A stretch of DNA of 64,000 bases. Origin: a virus. Taxonomy: Duplodnaviria; Heunggongvirae; Uroviricota; Caudoviricetes. Position 1 is the first letter of the stretch, and each line of letters starts with the position of its first letter. A program made the translations under genes and the position numbers. The notes beneath the pieces are model-generated. The model made no database searches, was not told the DNA's origin, and saw only the letters and a program-made list of their open reading frames with translations. Below are positions 1-52,729 of this stretch, one piece after another. The stretch lies in IMG/VR virus record IMGVR_UViG_3300032268_000658; one strand, written 5' to 3'.

Positions 1-1716
1 AGTTCCTGTTTGAGTGTTAGTAGGAGTTTGAGTTGGTGTTGCGGTTAAAGTAGTCGTTGTGGTTGGCGTTTGCGTTCCTGTTTGAGTCGGAGTTGTTGTT
101 ACTGCAGCAGTTCCTGTTTGAGTATTAGTAGGAGTTTGAGTTGGTGTTGTTGTCGGCGTTTGAGTATTAGTAGGAGTTGAAGTAGGTGTTCTTGTTGGTG
201 TAGGAGTAGGTGTTGGACAAGTTCCCCAAACTGGTTTTGGTAATGACCACGCAGTTGCAAAAAGTGAGAAGTTAGTTGGAGTAGTAGGTATATTTGTAAC
301 ACACCACCCACTTAAATCTTGGTTGAAGGAGCTTGCATTAACAAACATATTAATCATGTTGGTAACACTTGAAACATTCCAAGTACTTATATTTTGGTTG
401 AATACAGACGCTCCACCAAACATGCCTTGCATGTTGGTAACACTTGAAACATTCCAAGTACCTATGTTTTGATTAAATACATACGCTCCACCAAACATGC
501 CTTGCATGTTGGTAACACTTGAAACATTCCAAGTACCTATGTTTTGATTAAATGCGTTCGCACTCGCAAACATGTTTTGCATGTCGGTAACACTTGAAAC
601 ATCCCAAGTGTTTATGTTTTGATTAAATGCGTCCGCACTCTCAAACATGGATTGCATGTCTGTAACACCACTAACATTCCAAGTACTTATGTTTTGATTA
701 AATTCGGATGCCTGTTTAAACATACTATTCATAATTGTTACATTTGACGTGTTCCAAGATGAAATATCACTATTAAAAGGCGTAATACTAAACATGGCAT
801 TCATATTAGTAACATTTGATACATTCCAACTATTTAAACTATAATTAAAATTAGTGTTAGTAAACATGCTACCCATATTAGTAACATTTGATACATTCCA
901 ACTGCTTACATCTGAATTAAAATTAGTGTTGTTGGCAAACATGCTACCCATATTAGTAACATTTTCAGTATTCCAATTAGATATATTTGTTGCGGTTGTT
1001 CCTAATAATTCACAACTTTCAAACATACCACTAATGTTACCGCTTAATATTGGGTAATCTGTTGCACTAATACCTGTTAAGTTATTACAATCGTAAAATG
1101 ACCCAGAATAACTATTAATACCTATATTTCCCCATTGTTTAATATCAACTAACTGAAGATTACTTCCTTCATATGCTCCAAAGCTAAATTCAGTTGCAAG
1201 ACCAGTTATAGTTACGTCATAATTACCAGATGTTGCGTAAGTGTGTGTTCTATTTGCATAAGAATTAACACTACTACCACCATCCCCCCAATTTATTGTT
1301 CCAGAGTATGTACCATTAATCCAATAAGGTAAGGATAAAGAATCTCCATTACTTGCAATATAGAATGTTAATATCATACTGCTTGGACAAGGTCCTGTTG
1401 ACCCACTATGGAGGAATATGTTGTTTGCATTAGTTGCCCATGTAACATTCTCATCTGTGGTAGTTCCAGTGCCTCCAAATAATTTTAAATAATAATTTAA
1501 TTGTTCTCTGCCAGTAGCAACCATTGCCGCCCATCCATGTTGACCACCAATCTTATAAATGGTATATCCATCACATGTCGGGTCAACTCCTGACCAAAAT
1601 CCAGTGTCAACCGTTGCACCAAGGCCTTTTGTAGTTGCCGAAAAATATGTGAAATCACCTTTAACAGTTCCTCCAGCAATTGAGGTTGTTCCCGATTTTA
1701 TGATTAATATTGACAT
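1..1716 (-). CDS. Surface-repeat protein, N-terminal 572 aa; its C-terminus runs off the window. Globular N-domain, then about 11 tandem 26-residue DUF285/BspA-type repeats, then a Pro/Thr-rich linker
   Basis: My own translation of the minus strand from ATG 1716..1714 (MSILIIKSGTTSIAGG...) stays open down to position 1. The ORF track misses it because there is no stop in the window. Repeat units look like F.ASAFNQNIGTWNVSSVTNMQGMF / FANNTNFNSDVSSWNVSNVTNMGSMF. The tail is PTPTPTRTPTSTPTNTQTPTTTPTQ... Confidence 0.75.
   Translation of the reverse strand, partial: MSILIIKSGTTSIAGGTVKGDFTYFSATTKGLGATVDTGFWSGVDPTCDGYTIYKIGGQHGWAAMVATGREQLNYYLKLFGGTGTTTDENVTWATNANNIFLHSGSTGPCPSSMILTFYIASNGDSLSLPYWINGTYSGTINWGDGGSSVNSYANRTHTYATSGNYDVTITGLATEFSFGAYEGSNLQLVDIKQWGNIGINSYSGSFYDCNNLTGISATDYPILSGNISGMFESCELLGTTATNISNWNTENVTNMGSMFANNTNFNSDVSSWNVSNVTNMGSMFTNTNFNYSLNSWNVSNVTNMNAMFSITPFNSDISSWNTSNVTIMNSMFKQASEFNQNISTWNVSGVTDMQSMFESADAFNQNINTWDVSSVTDMQNMFASANAFNQNIGTWNVSSVTNMQGMFGGAYVFNQNIGTWNVSSVTNMQGMFGGASVFNQNISTWNVSSVTNMINMFVNASSFNQDLSGWCVTNIPTTPTNFSLFATAWSLPKPVWGTCPTPTPTPTRTPTSTPTNTQTPTTTPTQTPTNTQTGTAAVTTTPTQTGTQTPTTTTTLTATPTQTPTNTQTGT
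345..740. repeat. Tandem ~78-bp near-identical DNA repeats (at least 4 copies) that encode the 26-aa protein repeats
   Basis: Unit catgccttgcatgttggtaacacttgaaacattccaagtacctatgttttgattaaatacatacgctccaccaaa repeats head-to-tail with few substitutions. Confidence 0.8.
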
Positions 1717-1770
1717 AGATAATTCATTTCATTTATTAATATAAATATACAGTCCGTATTGTTTAATAGA

Positions 1771-1798
1771 AATAAAAAACCCCACCTGAGGGATGGGG
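1771..1798 (-). terminator. Intrinsic terminator (minus strand)
   Basis: cccca..tgggg hairpin with an A-run on the plus strand (a U-tract on the minus strand), downstream of the 1809..2027 gene. Confidence 0.6.
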
Positions 1799-1808
1799 TT
1801 ACGTACTC

Positions 1809-2027
1809 TTAATCAATAACTAACGTGATTTCATCACCTTCGACAGTAATGGTTCCCCACGTTTCCTCACCACTCGGAATTTTACCCTCAACAATAAGAG
1901 AGTCAACAATACTTTCCATTCTATCATAGGACAAGTCACCTTCGGTACACTCTACCATTTCAATAACATCAACTGGTTGGTCCCAATTCTCCGTATCGAA
2001 CACAACATTAAATACAAATTTTTCCAT
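1809..2027 (-). CDS. Hypothetical small acidic protein
   Basis: ORF followed by a terminator; no recognisable motif. Confidence 0.45.
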   Translation of the reverse strand: MEKFVFNVVFDTENWDQPVDVIEMVECTEGDLSYDRMESIVDSLIVEGKIPSGEETWGTITVEGDEITLVID

Positions 2028-2053
2028 ACCACAAAAATATGAAAATATTTTAA

Positions 2054-2086
2054 AATAAAAAACCCCCTTCGTTTCTGAAGAGGGAT
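2054..2086 (-). terminator. Intrinsic terminator (minus strand)
   Basis: ccccttc-gtttctgaa-gaggg hairpin preceded by aaaaaa, below the stop of the 2109..2771 gene. Confidence 0.6.
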
Positions 2087-2108
2087 TTTATAAATTTTTT
2101 ATAAGTTA

Positions 2109-2771
2109 TTATAGTTTAACACAACTTAACAATGCTTTCACATCTCTTGATGGGTCCGCACCTAATCCACCGTCTTTTTCGGATAATCCTGTTATAAATA
2201 AAACAATTATAGAACCTAAAGCTAATACTCCACCAGCAGCAAAACCAACTTCAGAACCAACACCGCTCATAATTAACATCGCAATTATACCAAGAGCATA
2301 AGCTCCAGCACTTGTTGTTAAAAACATCAAACTTGTCAATTGTTTTTGTGTGATACATTGTTTAATTTGTTTCATTACTGTTGGGTCTGGTGTTTCTCCA
2401 TTAGCAATTCTTTCTTCTGCATCATCAATAGCCATTTGAGCAGCGGCTTCAGTAAGTAATGGTCTTCTTGATTTTTGTTCTTTCACAGAATCTGTTGCTT
2501 TTGGAGCCTGATTAGGTACAGGTTTCTTTGTGTCAACGTAACAATATCCTGGTGTTTTAACTCCCATACTAGCGCATGATTTAATTGGCTTCTTTCCTTG
2601 TGTATCACAATAACCAGGACTTTTAACTCCCATACTAGCACATGTATCAATCATGTTGTAATTTTTTGATGAGGACGCCACTTTATCCTTCATAACTTTT
2701 GATTGTTCTTTGATTACTTTACTAACCAATCTTGTTAAATCGGCTTCAGTAAGTCTTATAATTTTTCCCAT
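2109..2771 (-). CDS. Membrane protein with the conserved N-terminal leader MGKIIRLTEADLTRLVSKVIKEQSK
   Basis: Leader nearly identical to the 33329..33655 and 4214..5050 genes; internal duplicated CASMGVK[ST]PGYC motif; C-terminal hydrophobic helices (GIIAMLIMSGVG.., GGVLALGSIIVLFITGL). Confidence 0.6.
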   Translation of the reverse strand: MGKIIRLTEADLTRLVSKVIKEQSKVMKDKVASSSKNYNMIDTCASMGVKSPGYCDTQGKKPIKSCASMGVKTPGYCYVDTKKPVPNQAPKATDSVKEQKSRRPLLTEAAAQMAIDDAEERIANGETPDPTVMKQIKQCITQKQLTSLMFLTTSAGAYALGIIAMLIMSGVGSEVGFAAGGVLALGSIIVLFITGLSEKDGGLGADPSRDVKALLSCVKL

Positions 2772-2815
2772 ATTAACTTTGTTTTATTATAAATATATCT
2801 ATCTTGGATAATGAT

Positions 2816-3589
2816 TTATTTGAAGTCAGGCAATTTTGTATCTTTAATAAATTTCTTATGTGAATCCTTATATGATTTTTGAGTTTCATCATTCACATCT
2901 TTGGTGTATTGCCAGTTCCAATATAAATCATCATTTGGCTTGAATCCATAAAATTCGTGTACTTTCTTTTGTACTTCAGTAACATTCTTTCCATTCCAAT
3001 TCTGTCCAACACAAATAAATCCTGTTTCAATATCTTTAACAAGATTTGATTCTCCCAATGTTGCATGTCTATTTTCAATCCAAGTTAGTCTTTCAATTAA
3101 GTTTTGATAAAACATATTGGTTTGCCCCCATCTAACGGAACTAAAGAATATAACAGCATCAGATTCAAACAATTCTTTTGATATCTTCCATAACTCATCT
3201 TCAGGGTTGTTAAAACTTGCCCAACATCTATGGTCACCTGATGGATTCTTCTTCTTGTCCTTAAGCATTGCCTTCAATACTCCACAACTATTACCGTCCT
3301 TCCTTGATACATTACCTTCACACGGTACTATATTTAATTCTGAAACATCAAGTAATGTTGAGTTATTACCCAATTCATCATCAAGGTACATTGCAATGGC
3401 TTTTGATTTTGGAATGTCGACATTATCCTCATCCCAATTGTATCTATTGGAACAACTTAATATCAAAACCTTTTTTTTATCTTTAAGAATGTCCAACGTT
3501 TTCTTAATTGACTTCCAAGCATCGGATTGTACCATCTCCTCGGAAATCATCATCTCTCTTATTCTCTGTATGTTTTCTTGTAAGTTCAT
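2816..3589 (-). CDS. NAD(P)H-dependent FMN reductase-like flavoprotein (flavodoxin fold) with MNLQENIQRIREMM leader
   Basis: KKVLILSCSNR.. / ..LNIVPCEGNVS..C.. / DAVIFFSSVRWGQTNMFYQNLIERLTW parallels the FMN_red family (KILGISGSPR / PCDGCGAC / DGIIFGSPVYFGSMSAQLKALIDR). Confidence 0.55.
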   Translation of the reverse strand: MNLQENIQRIREMMISEEMVQSDAWKSIKKTLDILKDKKKVLILSCSNRYNWDEDNVDIPKSKAIAMYLDDELGNNSTLLDVSELNIVPCEGNVSRKDGNSCGVLKAMLKDKKKNPSGDHRCWASFNNPEDELWKISKELFESDAVIFFSSVRWGQTNMFYQNLIERLTWIENRHATLGESNLVKDIETGFICVGQNWNGKNVTEVQKKVHEFYGFKPNDDLYWNWQYTKDVNDETQKSYKDSHKKFIKDTKLPDFK

Positions 3590-3595
3590 ATTAAA

Positions 3596-4204
3596 TTATT
3601 TTTCAAAAATATCAGAATCTGAAGATGTGTTTACAAAATTTTTAAATTGTTCCATATCTTGTTCAGAGCCCAATATGTGAATTTGATTTGGGTTTCTAAC
3701 CGTCACACTTTTTCCACTACCAACTCTTGCACTTCTTATTGTTCCGTCGTATTCAAATTTTGGTAACTCACCTGTTGTATCAAAATTATTTGCCCAATCT
3801 GGATTTAAAGGGTTCTCATACCTACGAATTTCTTTATCATAGTTGGGGTTTTGTTCATTTAAAGGGTTTTTAATATTTAAAACCACAGAATAAACATTTG
3901 GGCCAAATTGGTAACTTAACGGTTCTTCAGAAAACCAAAGATGACTTAGACCCGAACTTGATGGGTCCTTAAATTGTGAAAATTTGTTTTGACTCGAATG
4001 AAACATTATATCTTTAATTTTGCTGTCGGCAAATATTGAATCCAAATATTGCAGATATTGTTCCTTTGTTCCGATGTTTAATAATTCAGGGTGGTTATTG
4101 AATACATATTCAACTTTACTACTACTGATTCCAGAAACTTCTTCACCTTCCGAAATTAATTCCATCAATTCTTTCAATCTTAATATGTTTTCTTGTAAGT
4201 TCAT
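3596..4204 (-). CDS. Hypothetical protein with MNLQENILRLKELMELI leader; its N-terminus is a paralog of the 2816..3589 gene
   Basis: Shares the first ~15 residues with the adjacent gene; no catalytic motif seen. Confidence 0.5.
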   Translation of the reverse strand: MNLQENILRLKELMELISEGEEVSGISSSKVEYVFNNHPELLNIGTKEQYLQYLDSIFADSKIKDIMFHSSQNKFSQFKDPSSSGLSHLWFSEEPLSYQFGPNVYSVVLNIKNPLNEQNPNYDKEIRRYENPLNPDWANNFDTTGELPKFEYDGTIRSARVGSGKSVTVRNPNQIHILGSEQDMEQFKNFVNTSSDSDIFEK

Positions 4205-4213
4205 ATTAATCTT

Positions 4214-5050
4214 TTACCAAGTTCTACATGCCCAATATCTTGGTTTCCATCTTGGTCCAGGGTTTTCACAATTATGTCTAGCTCTAAAGTTTTTTCTACG
4301 TTCAGGATTATTCTTCTTAATCCTCATTATTTTACCATGAGCAGATTTACCACCAAACCCAAAGTTAACCTTTACAACCTTACCCTTATCGTTTTTAACA
4401 TATACCTTGGACTTCTTCACATCACCTTGCATAATCTTTCCAAGTTGAACCTTGCGTCCTTGGTATTCGGCTTCATTAATAAATTCTTTGTTATAATCAA
4501 TTGATTGAACTGAACCATACTTATCCTTATACAAAGTTTCATTTAAATCCATACCAAGTCTAAATTCAGACACCAATTCATCCACCAAAAAATCGGCATA
4601 TGTTATAAGTTCATCTAACTCATCATCGGATAATTCTTCCCCTTTAATTGCAGATTCAACTTCATATTCTATTTCACTAATCAGTTCGTCCAATTCTTCT
4701 TCAGTTGTATGTCTATTAAAATGATTGGCAATATGGTCCAAAGTATGCATGTGTTCTTCAAACTCATTTGATTCTTCTTCCTCATACAAAGTTTCATTTT
4801 TGGGTTTAATACCCTTCTTCTTCATATTGATGGCAATTGCAGCTTGTTGAGCGGGGCTTGAAGCTTCATTTGTTTCCTCATCTTCAGATTCGTTCTTAAC
4901 GCAATTTGGATATTTTTTACCAAACATTGTCTTCATTCCCTTTTTAGTATAACCTTTCCAACAAGCTTCGGTCATTTCTGATTCTTCTTTAAGAACACGA
5001 TTAACCAATTTAATCAAATCGGATTCTGTTAATCTTACTATTTTGGTCAT
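4214..5050 (-). CDS. Hypothetical protein with leader MTKIVRLTESDLIKLVNRVLKEESE, an acidic middle and a basic C-terminus
   Basis: Leader family; the C-terminal KGKVVKVNFGFGGKSAHGKIMRIKKNNPERRKNFRARHNCENPGP looks like a basic nucleic-acid-binding tail. Confidence 0.5.
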   Translation of the reverse strand: MTKIVRLTESDLIKLVNRVLKEESEMTEACWKGYTKKGMKTMFGKKYPNCVKNESEDEETNEASSPAQQAAIAINMKKKGIKPKNETLYEEEESNEFEEHMHTLDHIANHFNRHTTEEELDELISEIEYEVESAIKGEELSDDELDELITYADFLVDELVSEFRLGMDLNETLYKDKYGSVQSIDYNKEFINEAEYQGRKVQLGKIMQGDVKKSKVYVKNDKGKVVKVNFGFGGKSAHGKIMRIKKNNPERRKNFRARHNCENPGPRWKPRYWACRTW

Positions 5051-5110
5051 AATAATTTATTTATTATAAATACTCCAATCCATTTGTTTAATGGGGATAA
5101 AATATCTTTT

Positions 5111-5386
5111 TTAGAGTTTATCCACGGCATTAACAAATTTATGGCATTTTTCAGATACACCTCCCTTATCATGGTCAGTAATAGATAATTTGACATTATC
5201 ATAATGAACGGTCATATCAGGATGATGATTTTGTTTATCAGCAATTTTCATTACAGAATTAACAAATGGCATAACTTCTTTATAATCTTTAAAATAAAAT
5301 GTTTTGGTAAGTTTATTACCACCTTCTTTCCAATCACTTTTATTCATAATTGTTCTTTTTTGTTGTTCTGTTATTATATATTTCAT
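5111..5386 (-). CDS. Pterin-4a-carbinolamine dehydratase (PCD/DCoH-like)
   Basis: Motif ..KQNHHPDMTVHYDNVKLSITDHDKGGVSEK.. fits the PCD signature [EDKH]-x3-H-[HN]-P-x5-Y-x9-H-D. The likely start is the internal Met (MKYIITEQQ..) at 5386 rather than the track's 5443, which would overlap the upstream gene. Confidence 0.6.
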   Translation of the reverse strand: MKYIITEQQKRTIMNKSDWKEGGNKLTKTFYFKDYKEVMPFVNSVMKIADKQNHHPDMTVHYDNVKLSITDHDKGGVSEKCHKFVNAVDKL

Positions 5387-5742
5387 TAGTAATATCCGTA
5401 TTGAACACGGTCTATGGGAAGACCCGAATGTTGATTGAACCATTTAAGAAATACTGGTTTCCACAAGTCCTCAAACATACCTTCATACTTGTAATACAAT
5501 TGGTCTTCAAGTTCAACAATATTATCTTTCTTTAAATAATTCATAAACTTGGGGGAATCATTATCCGCCAAGTCAGTATAAAAATCTTTATCATAATAAA
5601 TGGGGAAAGAATCCTCAAACCCTCTCAACTCTCTTTTGATTTTTGAATGAGACCACCATCCACCTACAGGAGTAAGGTCCTTATCAAATACGGAAGTTAT
5701 AAAACTCTCCAACCTATTTTCTGTAATAAGATATTTCATCAA
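5386..5742 (-). CDS. Hypothetical protein (MMKYLITENRLESF leader)
   Basis: ORF; N-terminal IITE-type motif. Confidence 0.5.
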   Translation of the reverse strand: MMKYLITENRLESFITSVFDKDLTPVGGWWSHSKIKRELRGFEDSFPIYYDKDFYTDLADNDSPKFMNYLKKDNIVELEDQLYYKYEGMFEDLWKPVFLKWFNQHSGLPIDRVQYGYY

Positions 5743-5900
5743 TAATAAATATACCGACCCATATGTTTAAGATGATGATAATGAGGTGACCATTATACAA
5801 GGAGAATCCGAACCGACGAAGTCGGTCGGGGACCGTCGGCCAAAAAGGGGCGGGGGATTCCTACGACCGAAGGGAGTTTCCGTCGGGCGATATACGAATA

Positions 5901-6266
5901 TCAATTATGTCCAAACACACCATCAGTTTCAAGGACATCTTCATTAAACGTATAATCAACCCATCTCTTCATATACCAATTAACTTCATCCAAAGTTAAA
6001 TTAAACATATCCATAATAGAACCCTGAATATGTTGCATATAATTAAATTGTTTGCGTTCATAAATTAACGCACCGACAACATACCCATCATAATGAAGGA
6101 TAAGGTGGTTATTCTCAACCATGATTTTATAATTACCAAACCTATCCGTTATGAATTGTAGTATTAGTCGTACCATGTATTTCTTTATTTGTATATCCAC
6201 GTAATTCACGAGCAGCATAATCCCACTCCATACGCATTTGTTTTTCGTTAATCCTATCCACCACAC
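5901..6266 (-). CDS. Hypothetical protein
   Basis: ORF only. Confidence 0.45.
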   Translation of the reverse strand: MWWIGLTKNKCVWSGIMLLVNYVDIQIKKYMVRLILQFITDRFGNYKIMVENNHLILHYDGYVVGALIYERKQFNYMQHIQGSIMDMFNLTLDEVNWYMKRWVDYTFNEDVLETDGVFGHN

Positions 6267-6277
6267 TTTTCTTCTTC

Positions 6278-6478
6278 TTATTTTTCTTTTTCATTTATTC
6301 CATGTACTGTTTTATTTGTCATACCGTTTACCGCACGGTCCAATTTAACATTAAACTTTCTTTCCGCTAACTCTATTTCTTTGTCAAGGTCAACCCCAAA
6401 ACTCTTCTGAAGTTCTCTCAAAAGGTCCATATCCAATTCGTGGGTAATTCTTTCCATGAGTATTTTTTCTGGGTCCAT
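6278..6478 (-). CDS. Hypothetical small protein
   Basis: ORF abutting the downstream gene. Confidence 0.4.
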   Translation of the reverse strand: MDPEKILMERITHELDMDLLRELQKSFGVDLDKEIELAERKFNVKLDRAVNGMTNKTVHGINEKEK

Positions 6479-6852
6479 TATTCTACAAGGTAATTTACAG
6501 GTAAAAAATCCCTATATCTAATTCTCTCATCCATCGTTTGATTACTAACACCACTTAAAATTACACAATTAGGATAAATCTTCTGATTTGTTTCATTTTT
6601 CCACAAATCAAAACAGAATTCCATGAACTCACTATGTAAGTCGGTATATGTGAGCAACTTAGCCAAATGTTCGTCACAAAAAAGTTCACCATTATCATAC
6701 ACACGAACATAACCATATTCTTCCATAAATGGATTTGTATCGGACGGATAAAACTCAATAGACCCAATAGCATTCCTACCGATATGAATAATAATCGGAC
6801 CTTCGTTTTTCACACGAAAAGAATCAAAAAAATTATGAAACAATTTATTCAT
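6478..6852 (-). CDS. Hypothetical protein
   Basis: ORF, tightly packed with neighbours. Confidence 0.45.
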   Translation of the reverse strand: MNKLFHNFFDSFRVKNEGPIIIHIGRNAIGSIEFYPSDTNPFMEEYGYVRVYDNGELFCDEHLAKLLTYTDLHSEFMEFCFDLWKNETNQKIYPNCVILSGVSNQTMDERIRYRDFLPVNYLVE

Positions 6853-6855
6853 ACA

Positions 6856-7458
6856 CTATAATTTAACTCCCCCTTCAATAACCTTATCAGCTTCAAACTC
6901 ATTAGACCAATTATATCCTTCGTCACCCGACATTTGGTCAGGATAGATATTCTTTATACCTTGTTCAACAATCTTACTAATCTCCGTATTATTCCCATTA
7001 CATGTTACAAATGACATGCTACTGTTATTAATGCCGTGAAATACAACATTAGGTTTAGCATCCTTAACAATTCTCCCCATCAAATTCTCGGCTCTTATCT
7101 GTCTATGTTTTGAACTTGAATCATTTGCCACCTTAATTCCATTCTCAAGAACCTTCTCTGTCTCACATCTATCTTTCTCAGGATTATTAGCAATTGAACG
7201 GAGAGCAGAAACCTTGAAGAAATGCTCATTAGCCCATTGAATAACATACCCCTCCATTTCTTTCCCAACCGTCATTGAAACATATTTGAATACATCGTTG
7301 AAGAATTTATAGTTATACCATAAGGTCCCCTCATCGGTCAACTCAACAACCCACCTTGTTTCATCTGTAAAGATTAACCATGTGGCATTCTTGTACCGAT
7401 AAACATCCACCCCACTTATAGATGAATTTATAAGTTCTTCAATTATCTTTTTCATCAT
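6856..7458 (-). CDS. Hypothetical protein
   Basis: ORF. Confidence 0.5.
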   Translation of the reverse strand: MMKKIIEELINSSISGVDVYRYKNATWLIFTDETRWVVELTDEGTLWYNYKFFNDVFKYVSMTVGKEMEGYVIQWANEHFFKVSALRSIANNPEKDRCETEKVLENGIKVANDSSSKHRQIRAENLMGRIVKDAKPNVVFHGINNSSMSFVTCNGNNTEISKIVEQGIKNIYPDQMSGDEGYNWSNEFEADKVIEGGVKL

Positions 7459-7537
7459 TGTCTTTTAAGTTCCATATGTAATAACTGAGCACCCCCATCA
7501 CAAGTGCAATCAAAAAGTTCTCTAATATTTCCATACA

Positions 7538-7852
7538 CTATTTTTTTAATATCAATTTTAATAAATCCGATAACACCTTTATCTGTTGTCTATCCCCAAA
7601 CCAATCCCTAATATATTTCCATGATTCGTTGGGGTCAATTCCAAAATACCCTTCAATCTTTCTACATAAAGATTCTGACCTATAAACCTTTACTTGGTCA
7701 GTCCTTACAATAAACCATAAAATTAATGTTCCATTATCTGAGGTCACATCATACTTCTCGGTCCAAGTTCTAATAAACTCACTAACAATTGGAGAACAAC
7801 TAACCCCCTCCCCAACATACTCGTCCAAGAATTTATATATTGTTTCTTTCAT
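7538..7852 (-). CDS. Hypothetical protein
   Basis: ORF. Confidence 0.5.
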   Translation of the reverse strand: MKETIYKFLDEYVGEGVSCSPIVSEFIRTWTEKYDVTSDNGTLILWFIVRTDQVKVYRSESLCRKIEGYFGIDPNESWKYIRDWFGDRQQIKVLSDLLKLILKK

Positions 7853-7872
7853 GTACAGTTTTATTTGTCATT

Positions 7873-7962
7873 TAGTCTTTTGAATTTTTACCGATTTTAT
7901 ATCCTACATAAAACCACATTCCGTGTCCTATAATTACTAATGTTAAAATTGTTGGTGTCATA
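7873..7962 (-). CDS. Candidate 29-aa hydrophobic peptide MTPTILTLVIIGHGMWFYVGYKIGKNSKD (not in the ORF track)
   Basis: ATG sits 14 nt downstream of a TATCTTTG -7 element (plus-strand acaaagata at ~7975-7983); the peptide is a single TM-like helix. Confidence 0.3.
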
Positions 7963-8145
7963 CTCTATTTTTTACAAAGATAAGGTATTACTGTGAAAAT
8001 TTCCAAAAATTTTTTTTTGAGTATGGAGGGGTAAAATAAAAGAGGGGGTCATGTTTTGGAAATATATTTCTAACTTTACATAATAGTGAGGTTTTACTTT
8101 ACACATTGTTAAACAATTGGAAATATACTTCCAATATACCCACAT

Positions 8146-8170
8146 AAAAAAACCCCTCTTTAGGGAGGGG
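8146..8170 (-). terminator. Intrinsic terminator (minus strand)
   Basis: cccctc-ttta-gggagggg hairpin with a flanking A-run. Confidence 0.6.
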
Positions 8171-8179
8171 ATTTAATTA

Positions 8180-8443
8180 TTAATAATCATAAAAACTTTC
8201 ACCGTACACGGTAAACCTATATCGTATTTTTATGTCAGGTAAATCATAATATCTTAAAACGTTCTGACATTCAGATACAATATCTTGCTCAATCTCCTCA
8301 TCGGTCCCATCCATCCAAAATAAAACATCCAAAACATTATCATCATGTTGTGATACTTCATAATTCATAATATCCTCAAACTTAGGTAATATAAAATTAC
8401 TCAATATTTTTTCTAAGACGTTATCGATATTTTTCATATACAT
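8180..8443 (-). CDS. Hypothetical acidic protein
   Basis: ORF with terminator. Confidence 0.5.
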   Translation of the reverse strand: MYMKNIDNVLEKILSNFILPKFEDIMNYEVSQHDDNVLDVLFWMDGTDEEIEQDIVSECQNVLRYYDLPDIKIRYRFTVYGESFYDY

Positions 8444-8455
8444 AAATACCCCATG

Positions 8456-8484
8456 AAATAAAAAACCCCACTAATAGGTGGGGT
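8456..8484 (-). terminator. Intrinsic terminator (minus strand)
   Basis: cccca-ctaatag-gtgggg hairpin with an A-run. Confidence 0.6.
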
Positions 8485-8533
8485 CCTTAATATTGTTTGT
8501 TAGTATGGGTTGGGGAATTAATAATATATAGTA

Positions 8534-9049
8534 TTATGATTTGATATAAACCCCATAATCATTTCTATACTCCAAAGGTTTGAACCCCTCATACTTCTGA
8601 AGAAAATCCTCATGAGTTAACTTGGATTGAAGATGAGTTTCATAGATATTACCGAAGTATTCACCTTGAGGAGCATTGAATGGGATTGCCACAACCAACT
8701 CATTACACTTTGAATATAGTTTTTTAATTATTTCAATTCCTTCACTCTCTTCAATGTGTTCCAATATGTCCCCCATCAAAATAATATCATAATGGTCAAA
8801 TTCAAATGTTAAGATATTTTCATTCCAAACATTATTATATTTTAATTTCAATTGATACATCCCAATGTATTGTTCAAATATTTCTATAGCGTCCATATTA
8901 GGAAAAGTCTCCTTGAGTAATTTTGAATAATAACCTGCCCCCGCTCCAACATCTAATATTGTAGATGACGGGTCAAATTTATTTACTAAGTAATCAAATG
9001 TTTCTTGTTTAAATACAGGTGTAGAGAATGGCATATTATGTGTTTCCAA
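8534..9049 (-). CDS. Class I SAM-dependent methyltransferase
   Basis: Motif I ILDVGAGAGYYS and post-I acidic residue (DAIEI); small-molecule/RNA methyltransferase-like size. Confidence 0.6.
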   Translation of the reverse strand: METHNMPFSTPVFKQETFDYLVNKFDPSSTILDVGAGAGYYSKLLKETFPNMDAIEIFEQYIGMYQLKLKYNNVWNENILTFEFDHYDIILMGDILEHIEESEGIEIIKKLYSKCNELVVAIPFNAPQGEYFGNIYETHLQSKLTHEDFLQKYEGFKPLEYRNDYGVYIKS

Positions 9050-9102
9050 TAAGTATAAATTTTTCCAAAAATTTTTAAATGAAAAAACCCCTTACTATGA
9101 GG

Positions 9103-9417
9103 TTAATAATATATTGAACAATAAGAGGCAACAATAAGTTCATTAGGATATTTTTTCTCAAACCATCTTACAAATATGTTTTCAGTTTCGGAAGCATTCA
9201 TATTGAATAAATGACTAATCGTTATAAATAGGTCTTGACTAACCCCCAAGTTGTGGTCAATAAATTCAAAGATAACTTTTCCTTTGTTAATAAGTTCGAA
9301 GTCTTCCTTGGATGCCATTACGTGGGATGAATTAGCCATGGTAAGGTCCCCCACCGTTTGAGTAATATAGTCGTCAAGAAATTTTAGAAGTCTACTTTCT
9401 TTAATGATATAATCCAT
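9103..9417 (-). CDS. Hypothetical protein (MDYIIKESRLLKFL leader)
   Basis: ORF; IIxE-type N-terminus. Confidence 0.5.
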   Translation of the reverse strand: MDYIIKESRLLKFLDDYITQTVGDLTMANSSHVMASKEDFELINKGKVIFEFIDHNLGVSQDLFITISHLFNMNASETENIFVRWFEKKYPNELIVASYCSIYY

Positions 9418-9467
9418 AATTTATAAATACCAAAAAGGGACCTTTTTTTCCCAAAAATTATTTTACT

Positions 9468-9600
9468 TGATTCAGACTATTATCCCCCCCAAACTGACAT
9501 TATGACACTATGTAAGGGGGGATACGGGGGGAGGGGGGCCCCATAGGGGGGTATGCCCCCATGCCAGAGGGGGGTTCCTGTCACAAAAGTTATCCCCACC
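9468..9600. repeat. Block of G6/C7 homopolymer runs (at least 5 G-runs of 6 or more within ~70 nt, plus C-runs)
   Basis: tatcccccccaaa...taaggggggatacggggggaggggggccccataggggggtatgcccccatgccagaggggggttcc; extreme against a ~30% GC background. Confidence 0.8.
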
Positions 9601-9698
9601 CCCTGTTACATTTGTTAACAATTAGGTGAACTTGTCCACACATAGTGTGGGGATAAGTTTATTTGGCGTTGTCACTTTGTCATGTTGCTAAGTGTGGT

Positions 9699-10139
9699 CT
9701 ACCACTGAGGACCATCAGGGTTAAAGATGTAAGCCCCCACTTGTAGTGAACGACTCTTAGGTAGTCTCATGTCCTCAGGTAAGGCGGGGGAGTTGTGTAT
9801 CTGTCTCAAGGTATTATCGATAGGTTTACTTACCTCACTGTTGGCACGTTCGAATGTGACATCATATATAAGGGATGGAAAGTTACCACTGTAGTATTCA
9901 CCTCTATTAAGTCTACCCATAATCCATGGGTTAAACTCATACCCATAATATTCCCCCATCTTTATGGGGTCCACGATAAGGTCCAAGAAGATAAGGTTAT
10001 ACTTCTCCAACTCAGAGGGTTTAAATGTCACGTCCTTAATCCATGGGTACTCTCTCATCAGGGCACGTTTGGCCACCTTATACTCATAGTTGTTCTCCAA
10101 CTGTTCGGGGGTCATGGGTGATTCGATTACTACGGCCAT
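9699..10139 (-). CDS. Hypothetical protein
   Basis: ORF; GC content visibly higher than the flanking genes. Confidence 0.5.
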   Translation of the reverse strand: MAVVIESPMTPEQLENNYEYKVAKRALMREYPWIKDVTFKPSELEKYNLIFLDLIVDPIKMGEYYGYEFNPWIMGRLNRGEYYSGNFPSLIYDVTFERANSEVSKPIDNTLRQIHNSPALPEDMRLPKSRSLQVGAYIFNPDGPQW

Positions 10140-10243
10140 ATGTGGATAAATAAATTAGGTTATATCATAAATACTTCATACCTTTGTATTGTTGTTTCAC
10201 TTGAGGGTGGCAAAGGGCGCGACTCGTTAATGGGTGGGGGAGA

Positions 10244-10714
10244 GTGGACTCCAACCTGCTTTATATTTTATATAAAGATTTATTTGGTGGAGTCAGAATA
10301 TTGTCGTACCTTTGTAAGATGAAGACATACTTAAAGACCCCGACCTCTGAACTAACTGTTCATCAGATTAGGACCATCGTATGCGAAACAATTAGATGGT
10401 GCGAAACAAACTTGGGGACCAAGTCTAATCGTGTTAACTATTGTGTCCGTACACTTGGGGATAAGTCTGTCCCCGCCTATGGAATGTATGATTATAATAA
10501 GAGGACCATCATGGTGTTCAGGAATTATTCCCCCACCGTGAAGTCCGTGGTCCGAGCTGTCCTCCATGAATATACTCACTACCTACAGAACCTTCGTTGG
10601 TATAATAATGTTCTGTCAAAGGTGGGGTATAATAATCATCCTCAGGAGAAGGAAGCACGTATGGTTGAAAATAGGTACAGTAATTGTTGGAACGATATAA
10701 AAAATAAGATATGA
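10244..10714 (+). CDS. SprT-like zinc-metallopeptidase domain protein (putative); likely start at Met 10319
   Basis: HEYTH (HExxH) embedded in ..VRAVLHEYTHYLQ.. with upstream ..LGDKSVPAYGMYDYNKRTIMVF.. resembling SprT-like domain organisation. Confidence 0.4.
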   Translation: MDSNLLYILYKDLFGGVRILSYLCKMKTYLKTPTSELTVHQIRTIVCETIRWCETNLGTKSNRVNYCVRTLGDKSVPAYGMYDYNKRTIMVFRNYSPTVKSVVRAVLHEYTHYLQNLRWYNNVLSKVGYNNHPQEKEARMVENRYSNCWNDIKNKI

Positions 10715-10762
10715 AAAATTTCCTTAAAGCTCTCTTTGTTGGTTACGTTGTAGTTGGGGTGT

Positions 10763-11110
10763 TTAACGCCTTGACCAAGAAGAAATAAGAGACTGACACT
10801 TAGCCACAATGTCCTTGGGGGTAATGTTATCCCCGCCCACTACATATAGACCCTCTATCTTGGCGTCTACACATGCCCATGCATCCATACCTATGGGTTT
10901 ACGTTGAAACATCTTCTTGGCCTTCTCGAAATACAGGGTCCCTAACTCCACCTCCTCGTTTAGCTTAACGACTATCCTTATTCTGCCCTCTTCTATCTCA
11001 TTTAAATCATATGACAATGTGTCTACTGTATACTCCATGTGTATAAGTATAGTTGGGGAACACAAAAAAATAAAGTTATTCACATTTGTAAATTGTGGAT
11101 AAGTGACCAT
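10763..11110 (-). CDS. Hypothetical protein
   Basis: ORF; its start region overlaps DnaA boxes. Confidence 0.35.
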   Translation of the reverse strand: MVTYPQFTNVNNFIFLCSPTILIHMEYTVDTLSYDLNEIEEGRIRIVVKLNEEVELGTLYFEKAKKMFQRKPIGMDAWACVDAKIEGLYVVGGDNITPKDIVAKCQSLISSWSRR

Positions 11111-11779
11111 GACACTATGACAGGGGGAAAAATAAATGTTAATTGTGGATAAGTTTAGGGGTAAAAATTTGGATTTGTCAAAATGTCAGGGGACTCGCGT
11201 TGATGGGGATAATCCCCTCGACACATATTCACCCCTATTTGTACTAACACTGAATCCCACTTTTTACCACCGTTATGGTTATGTGGATAGTGTAATGACC
11301 AATTTATTCCCCCTGACGACCCCTACAGGACCAGTTTTTTACTATGTGTGAATATTAGCAAAAAAAGGAGTAGTAAGTGAAGAACGCGGGGAAACGAACG
11401 TAGTGAGTGTTATAGGGGTATTTTATCCCCCTTCAACGAGGGAACCGATACACTATATAACCCCCAACGAGGTGGACATTATAGTCCCCTTCATAGTGGA
11501 GACCTGTAGTATGTGGGAAAATGTGGTACCAATATGATTACAAATGTATTACGAAGTACTGTCTGTTTAATCATGTAAACAACCACACTATATATCGTGT
11601 AAATAAATGATATCTAACATTATCGTGGATTACCACGATGTTTCTATATCATTACATAAACGATTACTATACACCACCTCATCTGTCTCCTCGTTAGGTG
11701 GGGACAACATATATAGCGGGGGAATATTTTGTGAATAATACTTATTCGTTATGAATTATAGTTATTATAGGTTAATTTT

Positions 11780-12088
11780 GTGAAATATAGTTATATGGGA
11801 ATTATGAAAAGAATGGTATGGGAATTTCTTAATACAAAGTATAGTGGTGTAATGATATATCATCAGTTGTTTAACCTATCGGATAAACTCATGGAGAAGT
11901 TCATCACTGATAGAGGTAATGGTATTATAGAGTTCTCACGTTTTCATCATGGTAAGGATGTTAGGACTCGTGTGAATAGTTTTCTTAGAGTAGACATTAA
12001 GAAGTACTTCGATATTCACGACATTGATATTGAGATGTATGTTCTTGAATGGTGCCGTAATAAGAGTACTAAGGTTGTTGAGATGTAG
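11780..12088 (+). CDS. Hypothetical protein
   Basis: ORF. Confidence 0.4.
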   Translation: MKYSYMGIMKRMVWEFLNTKYSGVMIYHQLFNLSDKLMEKFITDRGNGIIEFSRFHHGKDVRTRVNSFLRVDIKKYFDIHDIDIEMYVLEWCRNKSTKVVEM

Positions 12089-12190: not shown

Positions 12191-12457
12191 ATGGACAACA
12201 CATACATTGCACTTAAAAAGATTCTTAGTATGATGGTACCTGAGAAGTATCCTATGGTTTCGGATATTAAGGTAATTGATGATTCATACGAATATCATAA
12301 TAGTACGAAGTATAACATATATTTGGGAGTTACTCCTGATGAGTTAGAAACATTGAGAAATTCAGATGTTCGTGATTATGTTGAAGACGTGTCACGTTAT
12401 GTTTTAAATGGTAATGAAACTTTACGGATTATTTTCTATAACCCCGAACATTGGTAA
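12191..12457 (+). CDS. Hypothetical protein
   Basis: ORF. Confidence 0.4.
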   Translation: MDNTYIALKKILSMMVPEKYPMVSDIKVIDDSYEYHNSTKYNIYLGVTPDELETLRNSDVRDYVEDVSRYVLNGNETLRIIFYNPEHW

Positions 12458-15053: not shown

Positions 15054-15786
15054 AACGGTTATAATGTCGGACCTTCATTTGGGAATGAAGGACTGCAAAC
15101 CAATCAAGATATTGGAATTTCTTGATTCTATGAGGACAGACCTTCTAATATTAAATGGTGACATCATTGACTTTGATGCCCTTAGACGCGGAAGCAAGTG
15201 GAAAAATAAACATACAAAAGTTATTACCAAGATATTGGATATATCTCGTCATGTTCCCGTGATTTATATTCGTGGGAATCATGACGATGATATTCGTGAA
15301 TTCTTTGGAATGGAAATTGGAAACATACAATTCGTAGATGAATATGTTATTGAAACTGACGAATGGATTGAAAACGATGTCTTCAAACATAGACGATTTC
15401 TTATATTTCATGGCGACCAAATTGATGCTATTACATCCAAGTTTAAGTTACTTGCTCAGATTGGTTCAATGGGTTATGACCTGGCTTTAAGACTGAATAC
15501 AATCTATAACAAATACAGAGAGTGGAGAAAACTCCCATACTATAGTATATCAAAAAAAATTAAGGAAAACTTTAAGAAGGCGTGGACCTTTATCAATAAC
15601 TTTGAGGAGAACGCTATTAAGTACGGTAAACTAAAATCATGTGATGGTGTTATATGTGGACATATCCATATCCCTGTGATGAAAGATATTCATGGATTGA
15701 AATATTATAACTCAGGTGATTGGGTTGAGAACTTTACCGCAATTGTTATTACAAAAGATTATAAGTTTGAACTTATACAAATGTAA
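15031..15786 (+). CDS. Calcineurin-like metallophosphoesterase, LpxH-like
   Basis: SDLHLG, LNGDIIDF, GNHDDD, FHGDQID, CGHIHIP and GDW follow the order of LpxH-family motifs (DLHL / GD / GNRD / HGD / GHTH). Confidence 0.55.
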   Translation: MTTTTGYRTVIMSDLHLGMKDCKPIKILEFLDSMRTDLLILNGDIIDFDALRRGSKWKNKHTKVITKILDISRHVPVIYIRGNHDDDIREFFGMEIGNIQFVDEYVIETDEWIENDVFKHRRFLIFHGDQIDAITSKFKLLAQIGSMGYDLALRLNTIYNKYREWRKLPYYSISKKIKENFKKAWTFINNFEENAIKYGKLKSCDGVICGHIHIPVMKDIHGLKYYNSGDWVENFTAIVITKDYKFELIQM

Positions 15787-15787
15787 A

Positions 15788-15814
15788 ACCCCCACCGTTG
15801 GGTGAGGTTTTAAA
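15788..15814 (+). terminator. Intrinsic terminator (plus strand)
   Basis: aacccccacc-gttg-ggtgaggtttt after the stop of the 15031..15786 gene. Confidence 0.45.
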
Positions 15815-15831
15815 TAAATAAGACTTATATA

Positions 15832-16173
15832 TTACAATAAGTTTCTAAGAATGTGTCCTAAGATTGCAGCAACTGCAATAATTGCAGGGAATTCTTTTTT
15901 GTCACCACCCATTAAAGATATGTGAAGAACCACAGCCGCACTCATGAAACAAGAAATTAAAAATACGCCATAAAGAGATGTTGCAGGGATTACAAGTAAT
16001 GCCGCGCCAAATAATTCACCTATGCCAGTTAGAACTCTATATTTTTCTAATTTCATGTAAGCAAAGTTACCTACCATTTCTTGTGTACCACGAATCTTGT
16101 CAAATGCACCTTTCGCTAAAAATAATGCCGTTAGTACAGATAGTACCCATCCAATAATTGTTAAAATACTCAT
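15832..16173 (-). CDS. DoxX-like small integral membrane protein
   Basis: 113 aa with four hydrophobic helices and the size and topology typical of DoxX. Confidence 0.5.
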   Translation of the reverse strand: MSILTIIGWVLSVLTALFLAKGAFDKIRGTQEMVGNFAYMKLEKYRVLTGIGELFGAALLVIPATSLYGVFLISCFMSAAVVLHISLMGGDKKEFPAIIAVAAILGHILRNLL

Positions 16174-30630: not shown

Positions 30631-30662
30631 TTCTTTATGAAAAATAGTTAAACTATTTTTTG

Positions 30663-30734
30663 TTGCGAAGGATGGATTCGAACCACCGACCTAAAGGTTA
30701 TGAGCCTTCCGAGCTACCACTGCTCTACCTCGCG
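30663..30734 (-). tRNA. tRNA-Met (anticodon CAT) with a C1xA72 mismatch (initiator-like); tRNA-Ile(LAU) cannot be excluded
   Basis: Folded by hand: acceptor CGCGAGG/CTTCGCA, D-arm GAGC-AGTGGTA-GCTC, anticodon arm GAAGG-CTCATAA-CCTTT, T-arm GGTGG-TTCGAAT-CCATC, discriminator A. Confidence 0.8.
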
Positions 30735-42985: not shown

Positions 42986-43741
42986 ATGAACTTAAAGAAA
43001 CCAGGCAGTAGAATCTTCACAACAAATTTATTTGCAGATTTTATATTATCTAAAATACCTCAAACCGAACAATCAATAATAAAAGTTATAGACTGTAATA
43101 ATTTTTACGTAATTAAAGGAAAAACAACTTCTAACGAAATATTAGATTTAGTCACTTTAACCTCAGAATTTGAAAAAAAATATTCAAATATTATTAGTGA
43201 CGTTAAAATAAGTCACACAATTGATATCATTGAATATGGTTCTAAAATGGGAGTTCAACTTGAATTGGAACACACATATCATTTTAGCGACAACTGTTCT
43301 TACACTCAATCACAAATTGATTTATTTAATTCGAATGAATCTTCTTATGGTTTTAATCACACCCCTAATGAAATTACTGATGAAGAATTAGTATTTGTTT
43401 CTGAATTCCCTCATGGATATTCATTGGCTCAAGGTAGACTTTTATATTATTACGGTAAGCACTTGTTCTATAGTGTCCCATCATCATATCTATACCATTC
43501 ATTAACATTTAAATTAAGTGCATTGAAAGATGAGGATGGTGATAATATTTTTACAGTTTTTAATTATTCATCAAACAGTTATGACGACAGACTTAGGTCA
43601 GCGATTTTAGATGTATTTGATTTTGATATGACTTGGCTAAGTACTGAAATAAAAAAAGTGGATTGGAGTATTGAACTCACAAATCCACTTGAAGAGTATT
43701 CTTTTATTAAAAAGAAAAATAAAGATTTAATACTATTTTAA
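42986..43741 (+). CDS. Hypothetical protein
   Basis: ORF. Confidence 0.5.
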   Translation: MNLKKPGSRIFTTNLFADFILSKIPQTEQSIIKVIDCNNFYVIKGKTTSNEILDLVTLTSEFEKKYSNIISDVKISHTIDIIEYGSKMGVQLELEHTYHFSDNCSYTQSQIDLFNSNESSYGFNHTPNEITDEELVFVSEFPHGYSLAQGRLLYYYGKHLFYSVPSSYLYHSLTFKLSALKDEDGDNIFTVFNYSSNSYDDRLRSAILDVFDFDMTWLSTEIKKVDWSIELTNPLEEYSFIKKKNKDLILF

Positions 43742-44037
43742 AGTAGTCCTACGTTTTTTCTGTGTTTTTTTATAATATCAACCGCCTCAGTAAGTTCATT
43801 ATAGTTTCTGTCAGGTGCGTATAAAAATGACTTATGTTTTTTGCCATCACCTTCAATAACTAATAACGCAGGTATCATATCATTATTAGTTATTTCACTG
43901 AACATATCATATTCTTTTTTATATTCGTCGATATCTCTGTCAAAAAATTCAATACCTTCTTTGGTCAACATATCTTTAAAATCCGTACAAAACGGACATC
44001 CTTTCATTGTATAAACTATAACATTTAACTCGTTCAT
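43738..44037 (-). CDS. Glutaredoxin-like protein
   Basis: CPFC active site near the N-terminus, ~99 aa. Confidence 0.7.
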   Translation of the reverse strand: MNELNVIVYTMKGCPFCTDFKDMLTKEGIEFFDRDIDEYKKEYDMFSEITNNDMIPALLVIEGDGKKHKSFLYAPDRNYNELTEAVDIIKKHRKNVGLL

Positions 44038-44042
44038 TTTAT

Positions 44043-44363
44043 TTAATTTAATAAAGAAAGAACCTGAGCTGGTTGCATTACTCCCGTTTGAGAGAAAACT
44101 TCATTTCCTTCCTTGAATATTTTTATTGTTGGTACACTTCTGATACCCAACTCTCTTGAGAATTCCATGTCAGACTCAACATCATATTTGTATACACCAT
44201 ATTTTGGTGAACCTGTAGATTCCTTAATTAAAGATTCATTTACTCTTTCAAGATTAGTTAACATAACCTTACACGGGCCACACCATACCGCAAATAAATC
44301 CAGTATGAAGTTTTCCCCTTCATTAATTTTTTGTTTGATTTCCTCTGATGTCAGTTGTTGCAT
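44043..44363 (-). CDS. Thioredoxin
   Basis: WCGPC active site, 106 aa. Confidence 0.75.
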   Translation of the reverse strand: MQQLTSEEIKQKINEGENFILDLFAVWCGPCKVMLTNLERVNESLIKESTGSPKYGVYKYDVESDMEFSRELGIRSVPTIKIFKEGNEVFSQTGVMQPAQVLSLLN

Positions 44364-52369: not shown

Positions 52370-52554
52370 TTTGTATATAGATATGTGATTATGTAACTTA
52401 TTGATAGTCCGAGGAAAATAAGCTCCCTGTTACTATAGACCAAAGGTTTTGGTTCTTTTTGTAACAGGGCACCTATAAACTTTGTGACATTTTTCAATGA
52501 CACTAATATTGTGAAAACAAATATAAAAAAATATATTGTATCAATATTATGCAT
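52366..52554 (-). CDS. Small membrane protein
   Basis: Two hydrophobic helices. Confidence 0.35.
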   Translation of the reverse strand: MHNIDTIYFFIFVFTILVSLKNVTKFIGALLQKEPKPLVYSNRELIFLGLSISYIITYLYTK

Positions 52555-52729
52555 TCTTTTCTGTCTTGTTGTGCTCTAAAACTTCGCCTCTTAATTGTTG
52601 AAGTAATGCTTTCAACTCTTGTGCAGATTTTCTAGCTCTGGTACCAGCACTTTTGTTTCCGTTAAAGAATTTTGTTGTGTCCACTGAAAGTAATTCAGTT
52701 AATACTTTAATTTGTTCTAATGTTTCCAT
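52547..52729 (-). CDS. Histone H1-like (Hc1-family) DNA-binding protein
   Basis: ..KFFNGNKSAGTRARKSAQELKALL.. resembles the Bacteroidetes Hc1/histone H1-like core GNKAAGTRARK. Confidence 0.5.
   Translation of the reverse strand: METLEQIKVLTELLSVDTTKFFNGNKSAGTRARKSAQELKALLQQLRGEVLEHNKTEKNA

Follow-up and report, generated by a model that had tools for sequence, protein, structure and literature searches.

A DUF285 repeat protein of a large uncultured lake bacteriophage has modules that are permuted among sister loci

DUF285/PARCEL repeats have no assigned function, yet they abound in bacteria, protists, giant viruses and large phages. The canonical PARCEL unit is 25 aa, or 75 nt, long (PMC2996958). 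DUF285 arrays in phages are already known. Synechococcus phage ACG-2014f, which has a large genome, encodes a “surface protein 26-residue repeat-containing protein” with a DUF285 array, and arrays also occur in the jumbo phages D3, LAh10, PAU, OBP, pEt-SU and vB_VhaM_pir03 (ORF200/ORF287). The DUF285 ORFs of the jumbo Vibrio phage have been discussed without a function (PMC7765460). Purified virions of AaV likewise contain DUF285 and LamG proteins (PMC7507832). A different repeat family, FNIP/IP22, characterizes LRR proteins of Cafeteria roenbergensis virus (PDB 7zal, 6nyr).

Here we describe a DUF285 gene at the edge of a 64,000-nt stretch of DNA (IMG/VR record IMGVR_UViG_3300032268_000658; hereafter the window), whose source is a large uncultured freshwater (lake) bacteriophage. 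The encoded protein shares with cellular DUF285 proteins a PKD-like “IDWGDG” cap, 25-aa FNQxIxxW(N/D)VSxVTxMxxMF units, an FNQDLSxW cap and an LRR-type fold, at 39–47% identity over this cassette. Unlike these cellular proteins, it lacks a signal peptide, a lipobox and a T9SS C-terminal domain and opens with a phage-specific N-terminal domain, and its PT-linked modules are found only in metagenomic phage-like contigs. DUF285/PARCEL arrays were present in 112 phage records, all at <60% identity (~32–44% among the records listed). The N-terminal domain was not detected by tblastn in the DUF285 ORFs of cultured phages, whose architecture and linkers also differ from those described here. AaV packages both module types (DUF285 and LamG) carried by the family of this N-terminal domain, but it is a eukaryotic giant virus that shares no anchor domain, and the likeness is an analogy, not whole-protein homology. 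New here are the full architecture, the N-terminal domain family and the movement of the cassette within a locus between near-identical genomes.

Mosaic tail fibers and decoration proteins (T-even gp37/38-type; Hoc or pb10-type) combine a conserved virion-binding end with exchangeable distal binding domains. The phage protein resembles them in its constrained, putatively virion-located anchoring end, its variable distal modules and a mosaicism that is probably driven by recombination. Unlike all of them in sequence and fold, it also has modules whose order is permuted and not merely replaced, and PT/TQ linkers stand where those proteins have coiled-coil or beta-helical shafts.

In the minus-strand translation of window 1800–1, a stop codon precedes ATG 1716, which opens a frame of 572 codons to position 1 with zero stops. 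The original prediction, made from the letters alone, had proposed this unbroken frame over the first 1.7 kb and its absence from the ORF list; the ORF is absent only because ORFs leaving the window end go unlisted. The C-terminal remainder had been placed beyond position 1, and extension upstream recovered it. Using a neighboring 220-aa protein (window 2109–2771), we located the ENA scaffold KRAE22-1_SAMEA4981777_METAG-scaffold_73 (L001; 116,456 bp), which carries the gene and is 100% identical to the window across every segment fetched (>67 kb). The remaining 575 aa were read from this scaffold (L001 12911–14638), and joining this segment to window 1716–1 gave a composite translation of 1,147 aa plus stop, with aa 1–572 encoded by the 5′ part of the CDS in the window (1–1716, minus strand). 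The scaffold contains a 100-N gap within the DUF285 array (L001 12274–12373) whose flanks share a 39-nt overlap (window 499–537) inside repeat unit 7, so the nine units counted below are a minimum. The gap coincides with the one pair of units that are 98% identical. The scaffold's own gene caller had annotated no more of the gene than the 744 aa that follow the gap. By consensus scan only, a terminator-like hairpin with a T-run lies just upstream of the gene (1778–1800, minus strand), closing the transcription unit of the preceding 72-aa ORF, and is followed by a weak promoter-like site (1765–1738).

The full protein is organized as beads on a string: N-terminal domain, PKD-like cap, DUF285 solenoid, linker and modules A–D. 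The N-terminal domain (aa 1–112; window 1381–1716, on the minus strand like all parts of the gene) has an alpha/beta fold without a solved relative and is a putative virion anchor. A PKD-like beta-sandwich (aa 113–190; 1147–1380; pLDDT 94–98) caps the N-terminal end of the solenoid. Its matches to PKD_4/PKD were weak (E = 0.0016, below cut-off), and its consensus (IDWGDG...H.Y...G.Y.V.I.G) is common to the phage protein and cellular DUF285 proteins, making the cap part of a conserved DUF285 cassette. The solenoid with its own cap spans aa 191–500. It begins with two degenerate LRR-type turns (aa 191–240; 997–1146). These turns run on into the solenoid in the AlphaFold2 model and do not show the canonical W[ND][VT]S motif. 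Nine canonical DUF285/PARCEL units follow, delimited by their W motifs (aa 241–463; 328–996), and then the C-terminal cap (aa 464–500; 217–327), which reads FNQDLSGWCVTNIP...PKPVWGTCP and is conserved both among the phage relatives and in the consensus of the aligned cellular relatives. AlphaFold2, run with a 67-sequence alignment, gave pLDDT 94–99 for aa 111–500 and <50 for the linker, which is predicted to be disordered.

A PT-rich linker had been expected after the repeats. Translation and repeat finding identified it as a PT/TQ-rich segment of 176 aa (aa 501–676), the start of which (aa 501–572) occupies window 216–1. It is built from a 108-bp (36-aa) repeat present in 4.2 copies with 95% matches (L001 12758–13209), the first 1.4 copies of which lie in window 153–1. 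The rest of the protein consists of four small Cys-bounded modules with shorter PT linkers between them: A (aa 677–764), B (aa 836–918), the Cys-rich C (aa 943–1020) and D (aa 1033–1147). Modules A and B are 35% identical, and each has a Cys near its start and end. No match to a known family was found for modules A–D, and phmmer searches of the PDB with the window protein, two conserved neighbors and modules A–D returned only low-complexity or marginal Ig-like matches. By inspection, the N-terminus (MSILIIKSGTTS) is not a signal peptide, having no n-region or h-region; residues 4–8 form a strand of the folded N-terminal domain, and the N-terminus is conserved at residue 1 across the family. 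Inspection of the N-terminus also revealed no lipobox, and the protein does not show the membrane-lipoprotein association that is a TIGR02167/PARCEL trait. PF18962 (Por_Secre_tail) had no match at E ≤ 0.1 in the C-terminal 744 aa, which places the protein outside the T9SS-secreted class.

We observed that both profiles proposed for the repeats matched well above cut-off: Pfam DUF285 (PF03382) with 303.2 bits against 25 (E = 1e-91, 3 stretches) and TIGR02167, “PARCEL repeat-containing surface protein”, with 131.9 bits against 30 (E = 3.7e-39, 8 stretches). The original assignment to DUF285/TIGR02167 is therefore correct, and the predicted curved solenoid of ~24–25-residue turns is that of the LRR superfamily. 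BspA-type LRR_5 (PF13306) had no match, DUF285 being the sole Pfam family at E ≤ 0.01, and the Mbov_0838 PARCEL surface lipoprotein profile (NF045896) reached 238.7 bits, under its cut-off of 500. The database name “BspA family” on relatives is a label and does not denote the Pfam LRR_5 family.

The finer description of the repeats had to be revised. Tandem Repeats Finder detected a 75-bp period in window 355–703 (4.7 copies, 88% matches) and a 72-bp period in window 802–964, and anchoring on W[ND][VT][SE] gave unit spacings of 25, 24, 24, 25, 25, 25, 25 and 25 aa. The period is thus 25/24 aa (75/72 bp) instead of the 26 residues and 78 bp first given, a “26” that comes from the old TIGR02167 name. 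At least 11 copies had been counted; there are nine canonical units, and the higher figure holds only if the degenerate turns are included. In all, the solenoid has ~12 turns, made up of the nine units, the two degenerate N-terminal turns and the C-terminal cap. The units had also been called near-identical in DNA. We found pairwise identities of 46–84%, with the exception of units 7 and 8 (window 552–478 and 477–403) at 98%; the truly near-identical repeats of this gene are the 108-bp linker units, not the DUF285 units.

The 572-aa query matched 6,788 DUF285 proteins, only three of them close. In sister loci, the flanks are 94–99.8% identical to the window, and the genes between them differ in architecture. 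Module order differs in five sister loci with breakpoints at domain/linker borders, and the DUF285 cassette sits at three different locus positions. The window gene reads Nt - PKD - DUF285 - linker - A - B - C - D, and locus L003 reads Nt - A - B - X - PKD - DUF285. Three further loci (L004, L005 and L008) have two genes, the first reading Nt - linker - A - B - terminal module and the second Nt - (linker) - PKD - DUF285 (- small module); these are tandem paralogues, each opened by the same N-terminal domain. Identity blocks stop exactly at the Nt/PKD and cap/linker borders, with a recombination breakpoint exactly at the end of the solenoid C-terminal cap.

Copy numbers vary as well. The first genes of L004 and L005 differ by exactly 108 aa, equal to three 36-aa linker units. 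Protein P0001 carries 7 DUF285 units where the window carries 9, and its junction unit combines units 6 and 8, the product that in-register unequal exchange would give. All sister contigs are short-read assemblies, and collapse or mis-joining at repeats stays a caveat for these architectures and unit numbers alike. These sister contigs support the earlier expectation that the gene is recombination-prone and varies in length. Modules A–D have 14 database relatives, all metagenomic mosaics. One of them, placed behind a LamG domain, belongs to a second phage scaffold of the same lake (L009; 196 kb), where the gene context is different, and the modules common to this scaffold and our gene are 83–98% identical in amino acids. 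We make no claim of a shared N-terminal domain for the L009 protein, of which hhalign aligned the LamG part alone.

An exhaustive HMMER search of 1.84 billion representatives found 107 proteins or clusters matching the N-terminal domain (E ≤ 1e-3). The match was always at residues 1–110, in proteins of ~70 to 1,490 aa (mostly 200–680), and the members are all metagenomic. Laminin_G_3 (LamG) was present in 33 of 65 members, and the other partners of the domain among these 65 were Lcl_C, CBM_4_9, RCC1 or DUF5122 propellers and DUF285. Cluster look-up of ten members gave uninformative names, three being labeled only “hypothetical protein”. A tblastn search with the domain against 50,697 phage records gave no match, and comparison of its fold with known structures matched nothing of known function. 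In BFVD, it matched the N-terminal part of an uncultured Caudovirales protein annotated as ConA-like lectin (TM 0.78, E = 2.8e-6) and that of an uncultured Caudovirales protein with a GLEYA-adhesin domain. PHROG labels such as “virion structural protein” and “baseplate wedge” map mainly to the LamG part of members and were set aside as anchor evidence.

The family profile detected one N-terminal-domain gene per locus, and two in L004 and L008. As for location in a tail or baseplate cluster, no neighbor in the genome studied here carries a structural annotation, and tail-fiber neighbors occur at one distant relative, which is flanked by collagen-like tail-fiber proteins (phrog_5073, 1.7e-47). 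Two other distant members share a conserved slot adjoining DNA polymerase B and a T4 gp13-like neck gene, and one of these two myovirus contigs also carries a tail sheath gene.

We estimated dN/dS by the Nei-Gojobori method. The N-terminal domain is under strong purifying selection (dN/dS 0.04–0.08, dS up to 0.43); the value for the DUF285 array was ~0.5. This contrast, the diverse partners of the N-terminal domain and the permutation of modules give the protein the pattern of fibers and receptor-binding proteins, in which a conserved virion-proximal end carries variable, exchangeable distal domains. Between the window and L003, the PKD-like cap showed dN 0.124 and dS 0.005: ~21 nucleotide changes, all non-synonymous, amid otherwise identical DNA, clustered at aa 119, 124–125, 132–134, 147 and 171–187. 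Such changes suggested a diversity-generating retroelement. This candidate is not supported: no second copy of the PKD-like region (template repeat) was found in the window or L001, and no reverse transcriptase appeared among the Pfam families listed, 25 of 40.

At 33% GC, the window is dense in small ORFs and carries one tRNA-Met. Across 76 ORFs scanned, Pfam and PHROG profiles identified a sigma-70 factor (58805–59602; phrog_351, 6e-54), an Amidase_2 protein (57143–57748), two DNA methyltransferases, a denV-type glycosylase, NUDIX, DnaJ, thioredoxin/glutaredoxin and AdoMet decarboxylase, and no annotated capsid or tail gene in the 64 kb. Around the gene are small accessory-type ORFs, and close to it are genes for a pterin dehydratase, a methyltransferase and a sub-threshold ART-PolyVal-like protein; no structural function was recognized among neighbors up to ~10 kb away in both directions. 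Megablast of window 1–8000 and tblastn of an 812-aa ORF each gave no match in 50,697 phage records, and a 44-mer taken from the cap region had no exact DNA match in the scans of IMG/VR and JGI metagenomes. In a search of one genome each from 185,579 species, the best cellular relatives over the full cassette reached only the 39–47% identity given above. They are mostly Bacteroidota (Arenibacter, Robertkochia, Croceivirga, Flavobacteriaceae), which weakly suggests a Bacteroidota host.

Taken together, we lean toward a virion-anchored adhesin or fiber. The idea of a phage adhesin or tail fiber, already part of the original prediction, gains from the conserved N-terminal domain, the exchangeable modules and the tail-fiber neighbors of a distant relative, and loses from the unannotated neighbors of the gene itself. 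Also counting against it, neither the N-terminal fold nor the C-terminal modules matched anything of known function, and the Cys-bounded modules, if disulfide-bounded, would need oxidation after lysis. Its main rival is a phage-encoded protein outside the virion, acting in the infected cell or released at lysis onto cells or matrix. Effectors and anti-defence factors commonly use LRR solenoids as scaffolds for protein-protein interaction, and the gene, which appears to be its own transcription unit, lies among accessory-type ORFs with no recognized structural gene nearby. We nevertheless regard this as unlikely: a 176-aa PT/TQ linker and Cys-bounded beads are typical of extracellular proteins, there is no signal peptide for secretion from a live cell, the N-terminal domain is elsewhere partnered with lectin or adhesin modules, and one family relative sits among tail-fiber genes.

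PARCEL tracts are reported to be mobilome-associated and horizontally distributed (PMC2996958), and the position of the cassette differs among sister genomes; the array might then be a selfish or neutral element spread horizontally into a phage ORF, with a product lacking selected function. This is improbable given that the frame is intact in 5/5 sister loci, dN/dS of ~0.5 at dS 0.35 still indicates constraint, the whole cassette is predicted to fold (pLDDT 94–99) and its GC is that of the phage (PKD+DUF285 part 33.6%, window 32.8%). Palindromic PARCEL DNA was also rejected: coding-DNA hairpins were short (7–8 nt) and confined to a few units, and dyad symmetry, in a crude test other than the MEME method of the original PARCEL paper, was not above a synonymous-codon shuffle (5 observed, 3.9 ± 2.3 expected; 182/500 shuffles reached 5). 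Host-derived DNA, in the form of a bacterial surface-protein gene at a prophage boundary, as was once suggested, or of a chimeric assembly, would fit the nearest named cassette relatives: surface proteins of bacteria, named “BspA family”, of which many come from Bacteroidota and carry T9SS sorting domains. We reject this reading as very improbable from the syntenic phage flanks, the phage-like GC and the distance of all cellular relatives. Phage-type synteny holds on both sides of the gene in at least 5 independent contigs from different samples, with 7.7 kb of phage-like, syntenic small ORFs past the gene, which lies ~22 kb from the end of the 116-kb scaffold; the protein also lacks a signal peptide and PF18962 domain.

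If the protein is a virion-anchored adhesin, the 112-aa N-terminal domain would dock it on the tail, baseplate or head. The long and probably extended PT/TQ linkers would hold out the PKD-like cap, the ~12-turn solenoid and modules A–D, and the cassette and Cys-bounded modules may bind structures on the surface of the host or of its surroundings. Recombination could reshape the protein because the linker DNA is repetitive and the anchor-coding segment is duplicated in sister genomes: homologous and unequal exchange between co-circulating phages would permute, fuse, split and resize it, and adhesion specificity may change as a result. More tentatively, and with greater doubt than for the adhesin itself, the locus could be a natural domain-shuffling hotspot. 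The 108-bp linker repeats and duplicated anchor segments would then serve as portable recombination sites, letting lake phages permute, fuse, split and resize binding cassettes (DUF285, A–D, LamG) on one conserved virion-anchor domain that marks a broad adhesin family of uncultured aquatic phages. The 83–98% module identity with L009 would, under this proposal, reflect exchange between different phages.

The locus gives the DUF285 solenoid a clear architectural role, as one of several interchangeable distal modules attached to a conserved N-terminal domain whose partners in other proteins include lectins. This supports the idea that the repeats are adhesion surfaces. For structural work, the N-terminal domain family offers a concrete target: its 107 clusters include no solved fold and no member from a cultured phage. 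Across the sister genomes, one cassette changes place inside a single gene or is separated from the other modules onto a second gene; this natural series could model how linker repeats bring about shifts in the host range or adhesion of uncultured phages in fresh water.

We observed that the stretch directly upstream of the adhesin gene (window 1809-2771) was variable compared to the sister loci L003, L004 and L008 and to contig N3f56kx1. It contains ORFs of 220 aa and 72 aa in the window and of 80 aa and 79 aa in L003 and L004; in another contig, a 176-aa ORF follows the 220-aa gene. G+C-rich, terminator-like hairpins were located at window positions 2063-2084 and 1778-1800. Outside the window, ~0.5 kb beyond the adhesin stop codon, the 116-kb ENA scaffold that holds the rest of the gene (L001) encodes a 241-aa ORF (15122-15847) with an Annexin repeat match (27.5 bits, cut-off 25; E = 3.3e-6), which is unusual in a phage. 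The sister loci carry ORFs of other lengths at this position: L003 has one of 192 aa, and L004, L005 and L008 each have one of 58 aa. A 202-aa ORF on the minus strand (window 3596-4204) gave a sub-threshold match to ART-PolyVal, an ADP-ribosyltransferase of polyvalent proteins (E = 3.9e-5; 24.9 bits vs 31.2). This ORF has a full-length copy in L008 and was not called in L003 or L004.

Elsewhere in the window, all on the minus strand, a 440-aa ORF (47558-48880) matched phrog_6688 and, below threshold, classical LRR models (LRR_8, 4.9e-5; 23 bits vs 27). It is possibly a second LRR protein of the same phage, and it does not carry the N-terminal anchor domain of the adhesin. The same strand encodes a 60-aa Hc1 (chlamydial histone-H1-like) match (52547-52729), an adjacent thioredoxin and glutaredoxin pair (43738-44363), a phage sigma-70 factor (58805-59602) and a single tRNA-Met (30662-30734).

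Adhesin modules were also found in L009, a large, phage-like 196-kb scaffold from the same lake (ENA KRAE22-1_SAMEA8798233 scaffold_14). Its module region (7900-11899) contains modules A, B, B and D, preceded by a LamG domain and 83-98% identical to the adhesin modules at the protein level (linker repeats, ~86-88% DNA identity). The gene adjoins thymidylate synthase, RNA ligase and a 1,124-aa LamG protein. L009 could derive from a separate phage or be a further segment of the genome that holds the window. A further module D copy (77% identity over 109 aa) was present in L004 (9636-9962), L005 (3904-4230), L006 and L007. In L004 it lies between the two tandem adhesin paralogues and is spanned by two called ORFs in the same frame (60 aa, 9477-9659; 86 aa, 9708-9968). 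This copy looks like a rearrangement remnant.

The PT repeats of L009 are also interrupted by an N gap. In L001, a 100-N gap (12274-12373) corresponds to window 499-537; the scaffold otherwise matches the window with full identity in all segments compared. The gap falls within a 98%-identical pair of DUF285 units, and its flanks overlap by 39 nt when placed on the window (499-537). The window sequence here may result from gap closure or collapse of the DUF285 array, and the real unit count could be higher than in the window.

Comparison of the PKD-like cap between the window (1147-1380) and L003 (11582-11815) showed ~21 nucleotide differences, all non-synonymous (dN 0.124, dS 0.005). These were grouped in a few patches; the surrounding DNA was identical. 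A search of the window and L001 for a second copy of the cap yielded no template repeat of a diversity-generating retroelement. These clustered, exclusively non-synonymous changes suggest diversifying selection or patchy conversion in the cap.
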